Assembly (NCBI GenBank): GCA_963737905.1
Contig: CAVTUQ010000037.1
Coordinates: forward strand, 64,001 to 128,000
Reading direction: 5' to 3'
Origin: an uncultured delta proteobacterium
GTDB lineage: Bacteria > Desulfobacterota > Binatia > UBA9968
Length of the DNA: 64,000 nucleotides
Of this stretch, positions 3,842 through 33,147 are shown one piece after another (position 1 is the first letter of the stretch; every line of letters begins with the position of its first letter). A program made the translations under genes and the position numbers. A model generated the notes under the pieces. The model was not told where the DNA came from and ran no database searches. It worked only from the letters and a program-made list of their open reading frames with translations.

Positions 3842-4008
3842 TACTACTATGCTGCGAAATTTTCGCGGCTTGCGCAAATTTTCTATCAGAGGGATTAACC
3901 ACAAAGAACGCATAGAACACAAAAAAGATAATTGTTCTTTCCTGCGACCTTTGCGTTCTTTGCGGTTAAATCTCTCCTTTACTTTGGTTGCGGCTTCGCC
4001 GCGCTGGG
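3842..4008 (-). repeat. REP/MITE-like element copy B, nested in a CGCGGAG 9-mer hairpin (3768-4020)
   Basis: Inverted copy of 2413-2572; it interrupts the arm ctctgcgaactccgt / tctctgcggtg. Confidence 0.8.
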
Positions 4009-19372: not shown

Positions 19373-20812
19373 ATGTCCGGCAATCCGTCTTGGGGCATTC
19401 TTCCGCGCTTTAGGAAAGCTCCTTTACCACCGCTTGTCAGCATGTGGGCGGCGCTTGGGCCAGGCGTGATCTTCATGGCCTTGGCCCAAGGAAGCGGGGA
19501 GCTGATCTGGTGGCCCTACATCATCGCCAAGTACGGCCTGTCATTTTTATTTCTGCTGCTCCCCGCTTGCCTTCTTCAATTTCCGGTCACTTATGAAATC
19601 GGCCGCTATACGGTGCTCACCGGAGAGAGCATCTTTCAGGGCTTCATTCGCCTGAATCGCGGCTTTGCATTTTTCCTCTGGATCTTGATGACCCTTTCAT
19701 TTCTTTGGTTCGGCGCGTTTGCGGCAGCCGGCGGGACATCACTGGCCGCGCTGACGCATTTCCCGGCGGGTTGGACCCCTAGAGGTCAGACTCTCTTTTG
19801 GGGTTACCTTTCGATGTTTGTGTTTCTGGCAGCGATTCTTCTGAGCAAAGTGATCTATCGCTTGGTCGAAACTTTCATGTGGGCCGTGGCGCTTCTTACC
19901 CTCGTGGGACTTTTGTGGGCGAGTGCCAACACCGAAGCGCTCCGCGCCCTGCCGGCTTTCGCCAAAGGCTTGTTCATTCCCGAGTCGCCGATGCCGAGAC
20001 CCTGGGATCCTGATGACGCAACAAAATTGTTGACCGCGATCACCTTCGCGGGACTGGGCGGATTTTGGACTCTCTTTTATTCCTACTGGGTTCGGGACAA
20101 GGGCGCAGGGATGGCCCATTATATGGGAAGAATCACCGGTCCAATCACGGGCAAAGCCGAGGCGATCCCTTCGTCCGGCGCCGTGCCGGGCGAAGATGAG
20201 GGATTAGCGCACGCCAGTCGCTGGAGACATTATCTGTTTTGGGACGTCAGCATCGGTATTGGGGGAAATCTCCTCACGACTCTCATGACCTGCCTGCTGG
20301 CTTATGCGCTATTATTTCCTAAAGAGCTTCTCCCCCAAGGGTACGAACTTGCGGTCGTCCAGAGCCGTTTTTTCGAAGTGAGCTGGGGTTGGCTTGGAAA
20401 ACTCCTCTTCTTGATCGTCGCCGCGGCATTTCTTTCCGACACTTGGCTCGCCACCGTCGATGCGGTGAGCCGCATTCACACGGATTGCGTTTACGCTTTT
20501 TTTCCACGGACACAGTCCGTGCCGGTCCGCTCCTGGTATTTGATCTTCCTGTTTCTACTCACCGCCATCACCGCCGCTACTATGGGCTTTGCCGAACCCG
20601 GACCCCTGATCCTGCTCTCAGCCGTTATCGGATTCGTGGGTACCGTACTTTTCTCGGTGGCGTTGATTTTTCTAAATCATGTTTACTTGCCGCGGTACTT
20701 GCCTGCCGCCGTCCGTCCCGGCCGCGTCAACTTGGTTTTCCTCTGCATCGCCTGCGCGGCCTACCTACTTCTCGCCATAGCCTACCTTCTGGCCGTCACC
20801 CGCCTCGTTTGA
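19373..20812 (+). CDS. Nramp-like/APC superfamily membrane transporter
   Basis: LGPG...GSGELIWWP, EIGRYTVLTGES, about 11-12 hydrophobic helices. Confidence 0.8.
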   Translation: MSGNPSWGILPRFRKAPLPPLVSMWAALGPGVIFMALAQGSGELIWWPYIIAKYGLSFLFLLLPACLLQFPVTYEIGRYTVLTGESIFQGFIRLNRGFAFFLWILMTLSFLWFGAFAAAGGTSLAALTHFPAGWTPRGQTLFWGYLSMFVFLAAILLSKVIYRLVETFMWAVALLTLVGLLWASANTEALRALPAFAKGLFIPESPMPRPWDPDDATKLLTAITFAGLGGFWTLFYSYWVRDKGAGMAHYMGRITGPITGKAEAIPSSGAVPGEDEGLAHASRWRHYLFWDVSIGIGGNLLTTLMTCLLAYALLFPKELLPQGYELAVVQSRFFEVSWGWLGKLLFLIVAAAFLSDTWLATVDAVSRIHTDCVYAFFPRTQSVPVRSWYLIFLFLLTAITAATMGFAEPGPLILLSAVIGFVGTVLFSVALIFLNHVYLPRYLPAAVRPGRVNLVFLCIACAAYLLLAIAYLLAVTRLV

Positions 20813-20889
20813 ACGCCTGCCGGCCGATGACTTCGTCGCGCCGAGTTGCAGATGCAAAGGAGATTGGAAAAACCATATCTCGCGCAAAG

Positions 20890-21128
20890 TAATTCATGTA
20901 CCAATCGGTACAACACGGCGGATGAAAATGGTAGCGTCGCATTGCCGAAGGCCAATGACCGGCGGTCGATTTGCGTCTAGCGCCAAGAGCCTGGGCAAAG
21001 TAGGACCCGAGCATTCTAAGGAAACACGGTCTGTTGCTCCCAGTATAGGGAAGCACGCATAAGAGAATCTTTTCAAGACGAGTGCTCCTTTGGTCTTGGG
21101 AAATTAGCTTTCGATAGGGGGTGAGGCA
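20890..21128 (+). ncRNA. Putative IS110 bridge RNA region (left non-coding end)
   Basis: TTTGCGTCT (20970-20978) is complementary to target AGACGCAAA; CATAAGAG (21058-21065) is identical to the donor end 22374-22381; both lie next to short stems. Confidence 0.65.
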
Positions 21129-22364
21129 ATGCAAGTGATTTACCAACGCTGTTGTGGGTTGGACGTTCACAAGCGAAGTATCACGGCGTGTCGGCTGAAG
21201 TGGTTGGGTAGTGCTTGGGAAAGAGAGATTCGACAGTTTGGGACGATGACCAAGGATCTGCTGGGGCTGGCGGATTGGCTGGCGCAGGAAGGGTGCACGC
21301 ACGTGGCGATGGAATCGACGGGGGTTTATTGGAAGCCGGTCTATAACATTCTGGAAGGGCAATTTGAGTTGCTGGTGGTCAACGCGCAGCATCTCAAAGC
21401 GGTGCCCGGTCGCAAGACCGATGTTCGCGATGCCGAGTGGATAGCGGAGTTGCTCGCGCACGGATTGCTGCGAGGTAGTTTTGTACCACCCGCCGATGTC
21501 CGTGAATTGCGCGAGTTGACGCGGTATCGGAGCTCCTTGGTGCGCGACCGCGCCCGCACCCTCAACCGACTTCAGAAGGTGCTGGAGGCGGCCAATATCA
21601 AGTTGTCGAACGTGGTCAGCGACATCGACGGGGTCTCGGCGCGACTGATGCTGGAGGCGCTGGTGGCGGGACAAAGAGACACCCAAGAGCTGGCCAGCTT
21701 GGCCAAGGGCCGGCTCAAAGAGAAGCGTGCGCAACTGGTAGAGGCGCTCTCGGGTCGGCTGCAGCCCCATCAGAGCTTTCTGATCGCCGAGCATCTGGCG
21801 CAGATCGACTATCTGGAAGGAGCGATCGAACGGCTCAGCGGTGAAATCGAGGCGAGACTGCGCCCTTTTGAGCAAGAGATCGCCTGGCTCGATACCATTC
21901 CCGGAGTAAGCCAGCGCACGGCCGAGGTGTTGTGGGCGGAAACCGGTGGTGACATGAGCCGCTTTGCGAGCGCCCGGCATCTGGCATCGTGGGCGGGTAT
22001 GTGCCCTGGGAACAACGAGTCGGCAGGTAAGCGTCGCACCGGGCGCACGCGTAAAGGCAGCCCGTGGTTGCGTCACTGCCTGGTGGAAGCCGCGCATGGG
22101 GCCGCGCACACCAAGAATAAATATTTGAGCTCCCAGTATCACCGCATCGGTGCTCGGCGCGGCAAGAAGAAAGCTCAGGTGGCGGTCGGCCATTCGATTT
22201 TGGTGATCGCTTATCATCTGCTCACGCGCAAACAGCCCTATTCGGATCTGGGTGCGAACTACTTTGATGAACGCGACCGTCAGGCTGTCACCAAACGCTG
22301 CGTGACCCGGCTACAAAAACTCGGCTATGAAATCAGCTTGGAGAAATTGCAGATGGCTGCGTGA
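21129..22364 (+). CDS. IS110 family recombinase/transposase (DEDD RuvC-like)
   Basis: GLDVHK, AMESTGVYW, KTDVRDAEWIA, TIPGV, GNNESAGK. Confidence 0.96.
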   Translation: MQVIYQRCCGLDVHKRSITACRLKWLGSAWEREIRQFGTMTKDLLGLADWLAQEGCTHVAMESTGVYWKPVYNILEGQFELLVVNAQHLKAVPGRKTDVRDAEWIAELLAHGLLRGSFVPPADVRELRELTRYRSSLVRDRARTLNRLQKVLEAANIKLSNVVSDIDGVSARLMLEALVAGQRDTQELASLAKGRLKEKRAQLVEALSGRLQPHQSFLIAEHLAQIDYLEGAIERLSGEIEARLRPFEQEIAWLDTIPGVSQRTAEVLWAETGGDMSRFASARHLASWAGMCPGNNESAGKRRTGRTRKGSPWLRHCLVEAAHGAAHTKNKYLSSQYHRIGARRGKKKAQVAVGHSILVIAYHLLTRKQPYSDLGANYFDERDRQAVTKRCVTRLQKLGYEISLEKLQMAA

Positions 22365-22478
22365 CTGTATTTTCATAAGAGACGCAAAATACGCCACGTT
22401 CAAAAAAAACTTTCTTTGCGTGCTTGGCGTCTTGGCGCGATACCGTTTTTTGTCACTAAATTTTTACGGGTTCCGTCC

Positions 22479-22910
22479 CTAAGGACGAGCGAGGGGTTGG
22501 CCGCTCTGGGTGCCGATCCAGATTTCGCCGCCTTCATAAACTTCTTTTTTCCAGATCGGCACTGTTTTTTTGATTTCCTCGATGGCGAACCGGCAGGCGG
22601 CAAATGCAGCCTCGCGATGCGCCGCTGAAACGGCAATGACGACGCTGGGCTCGGTAATCTGAACCGGACCTATTCGATGCACGATGGCCATGCGGCAGAT
22701 CTGCCACTTTTTTGTTGCCTCCTCTCCCAGACGGGTCAGTTCTTTTTCGGCCATTTCCGGATAGGCTTCGTAGTCTAACGCAATCACTTTGCGTCCTTCG
22801 TTGTTGTTGCGGGTCGTACCGATGAAAGTCGCAATGGCTCCCGCCTCGGGGTCGGTGACGAAATCGACCAGCTCTTGAAGACTGATAGGCTTATCGGTAA
22901 CGCGAAACAT
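22479..22910 (-). CDS. moaE: Molybdopterin synthase catalytic subunit
   Basis: GAIATFIGTTR, LDYEAY, HRIG, PIWKKE. Confidence 0.95.
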   Translation of the reverse strand: MFRVTDKPISLQELVDFVTDPEAGAIATFIGTTRNNNEGRKVIALDYEAYPEMAEKELTRLGEEATKKWQICRMAIVHRIGPVQITEPSVVIAVSAAHREAAFAACRFAIEEIKKTVPIWKKEVYEGGEIWIGTQSGQPLARP

Positions 22911-29236: not shown

Positions 29237-31907
29237 CTAACCCATCAGCCCCAAATATCTCCAATATGGGATAGCCGCGATCAGCGCCACGAGATATGCC
29301 AGCGCATAAAAGAAATTGATTCGTGACATGAAGGAGTAGCTGAATCCCTTACCTTCGGTGGTTGAGTACGCAAGGGTGTGCCAGTCTACCTGGAACTTGA
29401 AGAACCAGACTTCCGACGCCATGAGGATAATCATCACCATGATCCATGGACTAATGCCCATATCGATGGACAACGGGAGCAGAGCGACGGTAAGCGTGAC
29501 GACGGTGAGAAAGCTCGTAAAAAACAATTTAACGGCGTAGGCGATGAGAGCGATAGCAATAAACGAGAGCGCCGGGTGATCCAAAAGCGGAAGGATCACC
29601 GGGGACGCTAAGCCAACCAACCATTCATCAATTTTTGCCTGGGTTAAGAAGGGTAGGTATACTTAACGTCGCGCCCATATAGATGAGCAATTCCCAATCG
29701 ATCCCTTTCTTCAACATGCCCCAGCCCAGCACGCCCGTATTGATTAAAACACAAAGCGAAATGAGGGAGATCCAGGCGCCGTCGATCCCATGGTAGGAAA
29801 TAGTCAACCAACCCGCCACGGTGAAACAAAGCAGCCCAAGCGTGATCCATTCTTTGTGCGATAGCGCTCCCAGAACTTCGAGCTGGTTCTGGACCATTTT
29901 ATAAGACACCTGAGCTTTCGACTCGGGGCGATAGAGAAACATGGCGCTGACTATAATGATAATGGCAACGACCAGAGTGGGAGGTAACGCAGCAAGAAAC
30001 CAATAGCCCCAGGTAAACTGCTCGCGGACATCGGCGGGTAGAAGTCCCCAGGCGATTAGGCTCGTCGTGGAACCTGTCAGAAAGAGAAAACCGAGCTGCC
30101 CCAAGCCCAGGAAGCTCGCAACAAAAAGGCCGGTTGATGCTTTGGACGGGTTTTTATAGCCGAGGCTTTCAGAGAGATTGACAAGCATTTGGCTGATAAT
30201 CGCAGTGCGGGCACTTTGTTGCGGGATAAGGGCCATCACGACGATCCCCATCAAACCTAGAGCGACAATCTGCCAGTAGTATTTCAAAGGGAAAAAGCGG
30301 ACCAGTTGCAGTGACAGGCGGTAAAAGAGCCCGGAGCTAGTGATGGCCGCACCCAAACCCAGTACTCCGAGGGTCATAAACCAGGTGGTGCTTGCGAAGC
30401 CGCCGAGCACTACCTCTGGCCTTCCCAGGTGAGTCAAGATCAGTCCCAAGGGAAAAATCAGAGCGACTCCGTAGTCCGGAAAGACCCAAAAGACCCAGTA
30501 GATTAACGTCAGGGAGAGTAAACCGAGCAATTTGGTTGCGCCATGGTCCAGGCCAATGTCGGGTGTCCAGAACCAGAGATAACTCCAGACGGCAAGACCC
30601 AAAACTCCGCCTACCCACCGACTCACCGAAGAGTCTTTGTGAGAAAGAGCAAAGCGAGAGACCAGATGTGACCAGATGGAGCCCGTTCCAGACATTGTGC
30701 CAGGGAGCGATGACGCCTGGGCCACCTTGGCCCTGTCCCGGTAAGGCTCCGTCATGTCTTCAGCCATGGTTCCCGTCTCCTGCTCCACCAGGTTGAGCGC
30801 GCTGCGAAGACAGGTGAGCGCCTGAGCATATTCTCTCTTTTGCACCAAGGTATCTGCCATGCTCTGGTAACGGGCTACGGCTTCAGCGATTAGGGTTCCT
30901 GCGCCTCTTTGGGAGAGGACTTCTTTATAGATCCTGACGGCTCCTCCCAAGTCACCCATATGAGCGAGCGCTCTGGCCTTGACGTCCGCTAAATGCGGAT
31001 CAGCGAAGAAGTGGTCCGGCGGGATTCTTTCAACCGCATTCTTCACGAACGGGGAGGAGCCGTTCAGCAACACCTCTTGATGTTTGATAAGGAGCTGCGC
31101 TGCTCTAGACCATTCTTCGGCTTCCAGAAAATGGTGGATAGTCTGCTTCCAATCACCCAGCGTCTCGTATTGCGCTGCAATCTGAGCCTGCAGTTGCTGC
31201 TCGGTTTCTCTGCCTTCGACCTTAAGGAGTTTTTCCCTCAAAAAGTCTCTAAAAAAAACGTGGAGCTCGTAACGATTCGCTTCCAAAGACCGGATCAAAG
31301 GAAACTCGCTTTTTTCAAGATCCTCCACGAATCGCTTTGCCCCTTCGGTTTGCAGCAACTGGTCCGCGGTCTGCGTATCTATGGTGGTCAATAATGAGGC
31401 GCGGCGAGAAAACTGTTGTTGCTCAGGGCTCCTGGAGCTATAGAACTCCTCGGCCAGGGAGTTGAACGCATCGCGTCCCTGGGAGTATTGCTGTTCTACG
31501 TGTGCGAGTCTTTTGCTCAGTGTAGCGGCGTAGTGGAGGAGCCAAGTGGGGTACTTCTCGATCAGTTCAATCCAAGCCTCGCGGGTAAGCCTCCACACCG
31601 TGGTATCCTTGACGGTGATAATAGTCGCCGAGCGTGGTTCTCCCGATAGAAGGGCCATTTCTCCAAACGAATCTTGCGGGCCCAGGACCGCGATGCTTTC
31701 CCTTCTGCCTCCACCTCCCTCGAGGACCACTTGGACGGCGCCAGATTGGATAATGTAGAAGGAGTCGCCTTGATCTCCTTGGGAGAGGATCGTCGTTCCA
31801 GCATTAAAAAATCTTTCCTCCAGCCTGCCGAGAATTTTCGCTATATCCTCGCGCGAGAGTCCGGAAAACAGGGGGTTGGTTCTGATCGTATCCGCTAAAT
31901 CAGCCAT
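29237..31907 (-). CDS. CNB + MalT-like helical/TPR + SLC13/DASS permease fusion; apparent +1 frameshift at about 29645
   Basis: FGEMALLSGEPRSA; RYELHVFFRDFLREKL; TPR-like helices; LGGFASTTW, LIPQQSART, IDWELLI; removing one base joins LLTQAKIDEWLVGLASP. Confidence 0.8.
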
Positions 31908-31921
31908 AAGCCCTTGGTCCG

Positions 31922-32908
31922 TTATCGGATGACTCTATCCGCCTTCTTCAGTACGTCAGGCGGGACGGTGAGGCCAATCGCATTTGCCGTTCTGAAGTTG
32001 ATGACCAAATCAAATTTTATAGCCGGTTCCACCGGAAGATTCTCCGGTTTTTGACCCTTCAGTATCTTGTCTACAAGGCCGGCGGCCTGGCGACCCATCT
32101 GGTAGTTGCTTGGGCCATAGGCGGCAAGCGCCCCTTTGATGGCCCACACCTCTTCGGTAAACATGGTGACTAGCTTCTTTCGCCTTGCCGCCTGAAAGAT
32201 AAAATCCGCTTCGCTGCTGACCAAATTATCTGGAATCTGAAAAAGTGCGTCGCCTGCTTCGTTCTGAAGATTACTTAAGGATGTCCTCAATTCCTCGGCT
32301 GACTTGGTGCCGTGCTCCACCACTTCGAGTCCAAGCTTTTCCGCTGACTTCTTCGTAAAAGCAAAATTGTCGCGCGAAAATTTATCATTCAGGTCATAAA
32401 AGATGTGCAGCCGGCGGACTCCTGGGACAACTTGCCGCAGAGTTTCCAGCCTCTTTCCGGTCATTTCCAAGCCAAAGCCAGCCACGCCGGTGACATTCCC
32501 TCCAGGCCGCGTGTTGCTCTTGACCAAACCCACCGTCTGTGGGTCACCCGGGTAACGGAAAATAATAGGTATGTCACTCGTTTCGGCCATGGCAACCTGA
32601 GTGGCCCTGGTCCCAGTCGTAAAGATCACGTCGACCTTTTTGTTTACAAGCTCATTGGCCATGGGTTTTAGAGCTGCCCGGTCGCCCTTGGCATCTCGCA
32701 TTTCCACGATAATGTTTTCTCTTTCTTTGTACCCCAACTCTTTGAGCCCGTCCCGCAGTCCCTTGACGCTCTGAGTCTCCGGTCGTCCAGATTCCGGGAT
32801 GAGAAGACCGATGCGGGACAGGCGTGGGGTTTCCCCAGCTTCGATTGCGGATGAGCCGAGCAGGTAAAGAACCATTGCTGAAAGAATCACTGCCAATCTC
32901 CCGATCAT
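31922..32908 (-). CDS. ABC transporter substrate-binding protein (ABC_sub_bind type)
   Basis: DPQTVGLVKS..RPGGNVTG, GALAAYG, DKILKGQKPENLPVE, LVINFRTA. Confidence 0.88.
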   Translation of the reverse strand: MIGRLAVILSAMVLYLLGSSAIEAGETPRLSRIGLLIPESGRPETQSVKGLRDGLKELGYKERENIIVEMRDAKGDRAALKPMANELVNKKVDVIFTTGTRATQVAMAETSDIPIIFRYPGDPQTVGLVKSNTRPGGNVTGVAGFGLEMTGKRLETLRQVVPGVRRLHIFYDLNDKFSRDNFAFTKKSAEKLGLEVVEHGTKSAEELRTSLSNLQNEAGDALFQIPDNLVSSEADFIFQAARRKKLVTMFTEEVWAIKGALAAYGPSNYQMGRQAAGLVDKILKGQKPENLPVEPAIKFDLVINFRTANAIGLTVPPDVLKKADRVIR

Positions 32909-33147
32909 GCGGGTTCTCCTATCTAATCTACGCTAAAAATGGGAGGTCCTTCTTTGGAGCATCCATTACCTCTTTTTCACAGTTTCCGCCACAAAAAAAC
33001 ACTGTCCTTTGGCTTCGCTTCCCTTTACAATTCAGTCTGAGTCTAATATCTCTTTGGGGCGCTCGCCAGGAACCGGGACCAACTGAGTCGTCGTTTGTCC
33101 TTGTAAGTAACAGGGGCTGTAAATTCACGGGCGGAAGGAGGAGAGCG

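Follow-up and report, generated by a model that had tools for sequence, protein, structure and literature searches.

The stretch of DNA analysed here, called the window below, comprises 64,000 nucleotides (nt) from an uncultured delta proteobacterium (GTDB lineage Bacteria; Desulfobacterota; Binatia; UBA9968; assembly GCA_963737905.1, contig CAVTUQ010000037.1, positions 64,001 to 128,000 of the forward strand) and carries an insertion sequence of the IS110 family. The element occupies 1492 base pairs (bp) on the plus strand (20890-22381) and contains a single long open reading frame (ORF), which encodes a recombinase of 411 amino acids. This protein matches the Pfam families PF01548 (DEDD_Tnp_IS110, E-value 1.4e-32) and PF02371 (1e-22) as well as the NCBIfam model NF033542, 'IS110 family RNA-guided transposase' (287.5 bits at a cut-off of 140). 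Among solved structures it matches only the recombinases of IS621 (E-value 3e-11) and ISCro4 (5e-10), both weakly; a phmmer alignment places the serine of an NES motif, a candidate for the catalytic serine of the Tnp domain, opposite the serine of the YES motif of IS621, at a residue count near, not exactly at, the published S241. The gene is framed by two non-coding ends, a left one of 239 nt (20890-21128) and a right one of 17 nt beyond the stop codon (22365-22381). This is very probably a recently moved, autonomous IS110-family element whose left end encodes a bridge (seek) RNA that guides insertion into a repeat resembling repetitive extragenic palindromic (REP) sequences.

The boundaries of the element follow from its copies. 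The same genome (46 contigs, 6.7 Mb) contains a second copy at G000:C25:70280-71771 on the minus strand, which is 100% identical across all 1492 bp; two identical copies argue for recent movement. Upstream of both stands the 15-mer ATATCTCGCGCAAAG, and downstream the window copy continues with ACGCAAA and the C25 copy with GCGCAAAG. The 15-mer is also found without the element at 8 other places of the genome, five of which continue with [A/G]CGCAAAG, and it therefore belongs to the target and not to the element. Left flank and right end have only the dinucleotide AG in common (20888-89 and 22380-81), which identifies AG as the crossover core; empty sites carry a single AG, and no target duplication beyond this core is present at the window copy, the C25 copy or the empty sites. 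Two soil DNA runs yield the element as a separate contig that ends exactly at 22381/22382. An original prediction, made from the letters of this stretch alone, had already placed the element at 20890-22381, its left flank plus core (CGCGCAAAG) at 20881-20889 and AG at both junctions; every string that it named is present where it was placed or at most one base away.

The target repeat

Joined without the element, the two flanks of the window copy form a single long hairpin (-26.7 kcal/mol, compared to -14.6 +/- 3.1 kcal/mol for 200 shuffles; z-score -3.9), in agreement with the earlier proposal that removal rebuilds a member of an intergenic hairpin family. The insertion point lies in the 5' arm of this hairpin, at the boundary of its first and second 9-nt units. 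Such units are widespread in the genome: TCGCGCAAAG occurs 76 times (14.7 expected), and double units of the form CGC[AC]A[AG]G-NN-CGC[AC]A[AG]G number 43 and 40 on the two strands, 83 in total, with 0.66 expected per strand; 15 of the 83 pair up as hairpins. Empty sites consist of TCGCGCAAAG followed by [A/G]CGCAAAG, and the 13-mer GCAAAG[AG]CGCAAA, which the guides described below would read, is found at 45 unoccupied genome sites (0.38 expected). Both copies of the element are situated outside long ORFs, the intergenic position of the repeat having been checked for the window copy only, and the repeat family may serve the element as a 'safe harbour'.

Further arrays of 9-nt units and their complements (e.g., CCGCAAAGAACGCAAAGG) are present in the window at 2450-2520 and 3895-3970. 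They belong to the same broad repeat class and are without a match to the 13-mer.

Guide blocks and natural retargeting

The left end was compared with those of homologous loci (L numbers below), which a protein query retrieved from species-representative genomes (79 loci) and metagenome contigs (80) at 51-96% amino acid identity. Their upstream regions consist of conserved blocks with short variable blocks between them. From 160 sources, 130 with a donor-guide match of at least 6/7 were retained, of which 82 showed the left-guide-block pattern, 70 of them with sufficient upstream sequence; 63 of these were kept, 58 of them non-redundant. An alignment (A1) was built from 49 loci whose helix-P offsets were typical and whose length was 205-250 nt; 47 of the 49 include a full right flank. 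Three of the variable blocks covary with their DNA partners at the ends of the element and in its flanks.

The block that pairs with the right side of the target, termed the right-target guide (RTG), is TTTGCGTCT. It is an exact reverse complement (9/9) of the core plus ACGCAAA at the window copy, and pairs with the corresponding flank of the C25 copy, GCGCAAA, through one G-U pair. In a fixed register across 47 homologs, this block shows on average 5.09 of 9 Watson-Crick matches to the right flank of its own locus versus 3.53 to the flanks of others (0/5000 permutations), and at least 7/9 matches are reached in 12/47 homologs versus 3.1% of controls. The original prediction had singled out this block as a target guide, an assignment that the homologs bear out. 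The 64-kb window contains TTTGCGTCT at just two places, in the left end and, on the minus strand, at the right junction; this number (2 versus 0.76 expected) is not significant by itself.

The left side of the target is matched by a second block, the left-target guide (LTG), which agrees in sense with the left flank, with the core and with the element's first two bases. It corresponds to the variable block GGCAAAGTA (20994-21002) between GAGCC-N-G and [GT]GA[CT]C. Its last 9 nt match the upstream region of their own locus in at least 8/9 positions in 63/70 loci, always 96-129 nt upstream, compared to 31/1400 trials with blocks from other loci. Where the same element is found in differing flanks (window/C25/L086, L012/L013, L077/L081, L142/L161 and L143/L151), divergence begins a few bases upstream of the predicted end, and the LTG block therefore matches the flank rather than the element.

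The third block, the left-donor guide (LDG), matches the right end of the element itself. Its heptamer follows a conserved GCACG-N and equals the right-end heptamer, which follows TTTTC, in all seven positions in 124/158 loci; these 124 loci contain 43 different heptamers, and heptamers taken from other loci match 7/7 in only 4/1519 trials. The identity of CATAAGAG with the right end was thus read correctly in the original prediction. The cores of the 124 loci are AG (102), AC (11) and AA (11), and LTG and LDG blocks change their core letters in step. In the window, CATAAGAG is confined to the left end and the right end (22374-81); again, the count as such (2 versus 1.13 expected) is not significant.

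Where relatives differ in their guide blocks, the repeats that hold them differ accordingly. The closest ones, L086 (96% amino acid identity) and L087 (93%), have the same or nearly the same guides and are located in the same repeat motif, as is a 93-94% relative on a contig of run X15. In L090 (90%) and L166, a relative from another genus of the same family with 82% nucleotide identity over the left end, the left-guide block reads CACAGAG+TA and the junction CACAGAG followed by TA; the right-guide block of L090 carries one change that follows its flank (8/9). L092 (69%) combines the block GACAAAG+TA with the flank CACAAAG and TA. A diverged relative in the same genome (G000:C33, ~30000-33000, minus strand; L004/L006) has the block CACGAAG+TG and a junction at which the flank CACGAAG meets TG. 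No copy of the element itself was seen at an unrelated sequence. Together with the second identical copy in another member of the repeat, and with relatives and miniature derivatives in the same motif, this upholds the originally proposed combination of AG core, left-end guides and hairpin-repeat target. Two side observations concern relatives in the same genome: the C33 relative matches its right end with 6/7 letters of the donor heptamer and resides in a different 9-nt-unit hairpin made of CACGAAG units, and a further relative on C26 has no recognisable left-end motifs.

Miniature, non-autonomous derivatives are found in a genome of the same family, G013 (L170, L180, L181, L183, L185, L187, L188 and L189). 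They consist of the first ~40 nt of the left end, including site A (see below) and a conserved ATGAAAT motif, and of the right end, with unrelated filler between; the four seen whole measure roughly 190 bp each. Four of the eight follow a flank of the CCGCAAAG type, which is the repeat motif targeted by the window element. The other four are preceded by sequence like the right end of the element, as if right and left ends abutted in the chromosome. A left flank of the type TTCGCCA-N-CA[GA] is common to L098, L100, L104, L109, L116, L120, L131, L133, L136, L138, L142, L143, L149 and L151, elements from different metagenomes that share only ~55-65% protein identity. At L010, L071, L076, L125, L139, L154 and L155 the left flank starts with TTTTC and resembles a right end. 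Soil metagenomes contain many proteins that are 85-93% identical to the recombinase, most of them on contigs of 1.4-4 kb; a search for homologous proteins returned no informative names.

Predicted structure of the left end

The predicted RNA structure derives from RNAalifold, which on 49 left ends returned helices b, D and P unprompted, and from a 5' stem-loop and hairpin G added by hand. Over the 49 sequences, 92.1% of 1250 cells of this structure are paired, compared to 78.1% after column shuffling (0/500) and 38-46% with slid partners, and 20 of its 27 pairs show double-sided changes. Five helices covary. Helix b, which closes the target loop, is paired in 196/196 cells with exchanges of G-C to A-U and of U-A to C-G, and in hairpin D the alignment pair 126/141 is G-C in 26, A-U in 15 and C-G in 7 sequences. 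All eight pairs of helix P have changed on both sides, and homologs form helices of 7-11 bp and of many sequences at the same offsets. Helix c, a further helix of 4 bp that closes the donor loop, is paired in 84.2% of cells, and its central pair 174/239 occurs as G-C (31), A-U (13), U-A (2) and C-G (2) among the 49. Folding the left end as a single sequence gave no improvement over shuffles (z -0.26), and this fold was not used.

The guides are arranged in two internal loops (Table 1). In the target loop, the closing helix (20964-67/21004-07) is followed on the 5' side by the RTG, then by the hairpin at 20979-92, and on the 3' side by the LTG with its 2 nt. The donor loop is closed by 21018-21/21068-71 and runs through a 5' strand (21022-35, here strand X) and an inner hairpin (21036-54) to an ACG and the LDG on its 3' side.

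In this second loop the left-donor guide is present and a right-donor guide was not found; the strand in its place matches an internal site of the left end, site A, in the same sense. The heptamers of A and X share a mean identity of 6.18/7 in 49 homologs versus 4.88 when shuffled (0/5000), and rare variants appear at both places together; the close relatives L090 and L166 have one or two mismatches between them. A third segment complementary to strand X was sought within the element and none was detected, as hits fell at scattered positions with scores equal to those of shuffled queries. When columns were scanned for mutual information, the element's first bases showed no signal except that of the left-guide extension. 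The original prediction had likewise left the right-donor guide unassigned, and the searches with homologs do not change this. A first candidate at ~21102-21111 was dropped, as it requires a bulge and, judged by eye, is not reproduced in L007, L008, L010 and L011.

Table 1. Positions in the window of the element, its guide blocks, helices and target halves.
Feature	Position	Strand	Basis or remark
Left target half ATATCTCGCGCAAAG	20875-20889	+	Core AG = 20888-89; same 15 nt flank the C25 copy
IS110-family insertion sequence, 1492 bp	20890-22381	+	100% identical second copy; contig ends in DNA runs
5' stem-loop GTACC-AATC-GGTAC	20898-20911	+	Helix 1: 95.6% of cells paired, 4/4 pairs changed on both sides (49 homologs)
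Site A, AACACGG	20912-20918	+	Same sequence and sense as 21023-21029; directly after 5' stem-loop
Conserved ATGAAAAT	20922-20929	+	Inverted repeat of ATTTTCAT at 22369-76; homolog alignment
Helix b, 5' strand GGTC	20964-20967	+	Pairs with 21004-21007; closes target loop
Right-target guide TTTGCGTCT	20970-20978	+	Reverse complement of core and right flank, 22380-22388
Hairpin D, between the two target guides	20979-20992	+	RNAalifold; 99.5% of cells paired
Left-target guide GGCAAAG with 2-nt extension TA	20994-21002	+	Same sense as left flank, core and first two bases of element
Helix b, 3' strand GACC	21004-21007	+	Pairs with 20964-20967
Helix P, 5' strand GAGCATTC	21009-21016	+	Pairs with 21080-21087
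Helix c, 5' strand AAGG	21018-21021	+	Pairs with 21068-21071; closes donor loop
Donor loop 5' strand, X	21022-21035	+	At expected place of right-donor guide; same sense as site A
Hairpin G, inner hairpin of donor loop	21036-21054	+	94.4% of cells paired; loop inserts of variable size in homologs
Left-donor guide CATAAGAG	21058-21065	+	Covarying heptamer ATAAGAG at 21059-65; identical to last 7 nt of element
Helix c, 3' strand TCTT	21068-21071	+	Pairs with 21018-21021
Helix P, 3' strand GAGTGCTC	21080-21087	+	Pairs with 21009-21016
Transposase/recombinase gene	21129-22364	+	411 amino acids
Right end: ATTTTC, left-donor pentamer, core AG	22369-22381	+	ATTTTC conserved, pentamer variable; homolog comparison
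Right half of interrupted hairpin repeat	22382-22439	+	Fold of joined flanks; family members

Other features of the two ends lie beside this structure. The ATGAAAA within the ATGAAAAT region is invariant in 49/49 aligned homologs, and TTTTC forms the conserved anchor of the right end. The two belong to an 8-bp inverted repeat, ATGAAAAT/ATTTTCAT, located 32 bp inside the left end versus 5 bp inside the right end, the core of which is conserved in all examined homologs; its right-end copy and the left-donor guide's site have three bases in common. Five further genome positions carry the element's last 11 nt and look like chance matches within unrelated sequence. A search of 20500-22800 against Rfam 15 (E<=1) returned no family on the left end and only a sub-threshold match to STnc240 in the right flank. 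Between the RNA region and the start codon, L018/L020 and L012/L013 contain short tandem repeats (of GAACGC units and of GATCAGATCG units), and in L018 the inner donor hairpin carries a large insert in its loop.

Interpretation and known systems

If it behaves like IS621, ISEc21 and IS1111-type elements, the element would excise as a circle joined at the AG core, and the recombinase, loaded with the left-end RNA, would insert this circle at sites read by the two guide strands of one internal loop. The sequence so specified would be the boundary of the first and second 9-nt units in one arm of the REP-like hairpin, which is available at 45 further sites of the genome. Transcription of the left end, its binding by the recombinase and the chemistry of recombination are likewise presumed from those systems.

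Several observations weigh against this interpretation. The RTG test is noisy, with 20/47 loci at 4/9 or below in the fixed register; some of these low scorers reflect register shifts, and others may be copies at non-preferred sites. The LTG fits the window element's own sites by 6 contiguous letters and the 2-nt extension only, its first G being opposite C. A 9-nt search for a right-donor guide complementary to the core and the start of the left end gave like score distributions for own and control sequences. The homolog sets were filtered by the same motifs that are under study, and since the homologous sequences are mutually related, shuffle tests overstate their independence. In two soil metatranscriptome runs (X15 and X16), contigs 93-94% identical to the left end and gene are found, from a copy preceded by the same target motif; these contigs show neither RNA ends nor strand and may derive from DNA carry-over, so that transcription is only hinted at. 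No sigma-70-like promoter was found in the integrated copy, the best promoter hexamer pair spanning the computed circle junction reaches only 7/12, and in no contig of four public runs is the right end joined to the left end.

Two side observations come from these runs. All 19 left-end differences of the X15/X16 relative among 40 listed (61 further exist) fall outside the three guide blocks, a sparing that we estimate at about 1-in-9 by chance and that is not significant. The one joint seen, in run X2 from 20889 to 22403, with 20 other letters between, was considered as an excision product and rejected, as it corresponds to a paralogous repeat.

The left-end blocks could instead act as DNA, for example as internal copies of the junctions that provide alternative ends or protein-binding sites, with the protein selecting the target. 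Covariation of block and junction alone cannot separate an RNA guide from a requirement at the DNA level, and the doubts about transcription raised above, from possibly DNA-derived contigs to the promoter search in the integrated copy, would fit such a scheme. The blocks nevertheless lie on both strands of internal loops whose closing helices covary, a property of RNA; one block is the reverse complement and the other two have the same sense, just as the published accounts of RNA guides describe, and RNA dependence has been shown in experiments with IS621, ISEc21 and IS1111-type elements (PMC11208160, PMC11187229). We hence regard a purely DNA-level function as improbable. The hairpin repeats, in turn, might not represent an independent host family, and could be footprints or miniature derivatives spread by the element, as miniature derivatives are known in a related genome and repeat and element co-occur in several metagenomes. 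Yet the repeats lack any end sequences of the element, 45 empty sites face two copies, relatives with other guides sit in other repeat families, and excision in the IS110 family is described as scarless in the literature consulted; such an origin of the repeats therefore appears very improbable.

An RNA laid out as in IS621 was the form suggested by the original prediction, with a left guide GCCGAAG (20944-20950) upstream of the right guide and with the stems GACC/GGTC (20957-60/20964-67) and AGCAC/GTGCT (21052-56/21082-86). The named strings do exist in this one sequence. Across homologs, however, the columns of GCCGAAG match the own left flank in 26.8% of cells (92/343), no more than chance, and the left guide lies at 20994-21002, downstream of the RTG; the two stems are complete in 4/49 and 2/49 aligned homologs, respectively, GGTC pairing instead with 21004-07 in 49/49 and GTGCT forming part of helix P. 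This layout is hardly credible for the present element. The main inference of the original prediction, an element guided by left-end RNA into hairpin repeats, is nonetheless supported, with one guide moved and both stems replaced, and its observation as worded is partly confirmed.

Insertion of IS110 elements into REP-like repeats under the guidance of a bridge RNA is published (PMC11208160, PMC11208158), and several known elements resemble the present one in part. According to the text of these two papers, IS621 of E. coli shares the DEDD and Tnp domains of the recombinase, a long non-coding left end that encodes an RNA, a 2-nt core common to target and donor, left guides of the same sense as left flank and core, a right guide that is the reverse complement of core and right flank, and a REP hairpin repeat as natural target. 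Its recombinase is distant (328 versus 411 amino acids, E-value 3e-11) and its core is CT instead of AG. Moreover, in IS621 the 5' strand is described as carrying the left guides and the 3' strand the right guides, the latter followed by two handshake bases (PMC11208158), whereas here the loop proceeds from the right guide (20970-78) through hairpin D to the left guide (20994-21002), the 2-nt extension follows the left guide, and a right-donor guide was not found.

The guide order observed here, with the complement of the top strand 5' of the match to the bottom strand, is that reported for the IS1111-type seekRNAs of ISEc11, ISKpn4, ISPst6 and ISPa11, the last of which also targets REP (Siddiquee et al., 2024; PMC11187229). 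In the account given there, the RNA lies downstream of the transposase gene, unlike the upstream position here, and inverted repeats stand subterminally, beyond which the left side extends for 7 bp (occasionally 6) and the right side for 3 bp. IS1111-type repeats measure 7-17 bp and lie near both ends, whereas the sole inverted repeat seen in the present element is the 8-mer described above, at unequal distances from the ends. ISEc21, with an IS110-type seekRNA, agrees in its non-coding region upstream of the gene and in an RNA that matches both target strands, and differs in that the match to the bottom strand comes first (PMC11187229, as far as its text describes). Site-specific insertion into intergenic palindromic repeats of many copies is further described for ISPpu9, ISPpu10, ISPsy8, ISRm19 and ISRm22 (Tobes and Pareja, 2006, PMC1525189; for ISPpu10, 10.64898/2026.03.19.712850), though in other hosts and in repeats other than the one built here from 9-nt units; for ISPpu10 the hairpin itself is reported to add specificity (10.64898/2026.03.19.712850).

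The closest IS-named transposase in a plasmid collection is that of ISArsp3 (Arthrobacter sp. FB24 plasmid NC_008538.1; 46.5% identity). Its left end shows the same succession of a right-guide block, then a hairpin, then a left-guide block that repeats the left junction plus 2 nt, and finally GAGCACG-N followed by a heptamer equal to the right end. Guides and host are different, and its right-guide block fits its single flank only via G-U pairs and a 2-nt shift. As ISArsp3 shares the layout, the latter belongs to a large clade and not to this copy alone. Judged from sequence, the putative RNA of this element combines the upstream position of the IS110 type with the guide order of the IS1111 type, a layout that is possibly undescribed so far. 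We found no text describing this guide order for an upstream RNA; figures and supplements of surveys of diverse IS110 RNAs were outside the search, and PMC11208160 may already show it in Fig. 6d, in Extended Data Fig. 10c or in its supplementary tables. A literature search also yielded no paper linking a bridge RNA with IS900, IS116, IS117 or IS1110, and ISAar29 was encountered only in Durrant et al.

We tentatively speculate, while holding it to be rather doubtful, that a large clade of ISArsp3-like elements with thousands of relatives in soil metagenomes uses a circularly permuted bridge RNA, encoded in the left end, with a geometry unlike that of IS621. In both loops an inner hairpin would have the 'right' strand on its 5' side and the 'left' strand on its 3' side, the 2 nt by which the LTG reaches across the core would act as a bottom-strand handshake, and the donor's right side would be recognised not beside the core but ~23 bp within the left end by 21023-29, in the same sense as site A (20912-18). 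If true, such a geometry would imply an order of strand exchange and rules of donor design unlike those of the published system.

For this genome, the finding is ordinary: a site-specific IS110 element that lands in a REP-like repeat, as do IS621, ISPpu9/10 and ISPa11. Its value resides in the comparative data, which fix three guide blocks and five helices by covariation in a clade of recombinases far from IS621, and which document a clear case of natural retargeting among the related 9-nt-unit repeats CGCAAAG, CACAGAG, CACAAAG and CACGAAG. The features that stand out are an RNA that is permuted and encoded upstream, the left guide's extension across the core, and the same-sense match of A and X; a guide order so far published only for IS1111-type RNAs is here met in an upstream RNA. 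Those who engineer bridge recombinases thereby gain a second, well-constrained RNA architecture.

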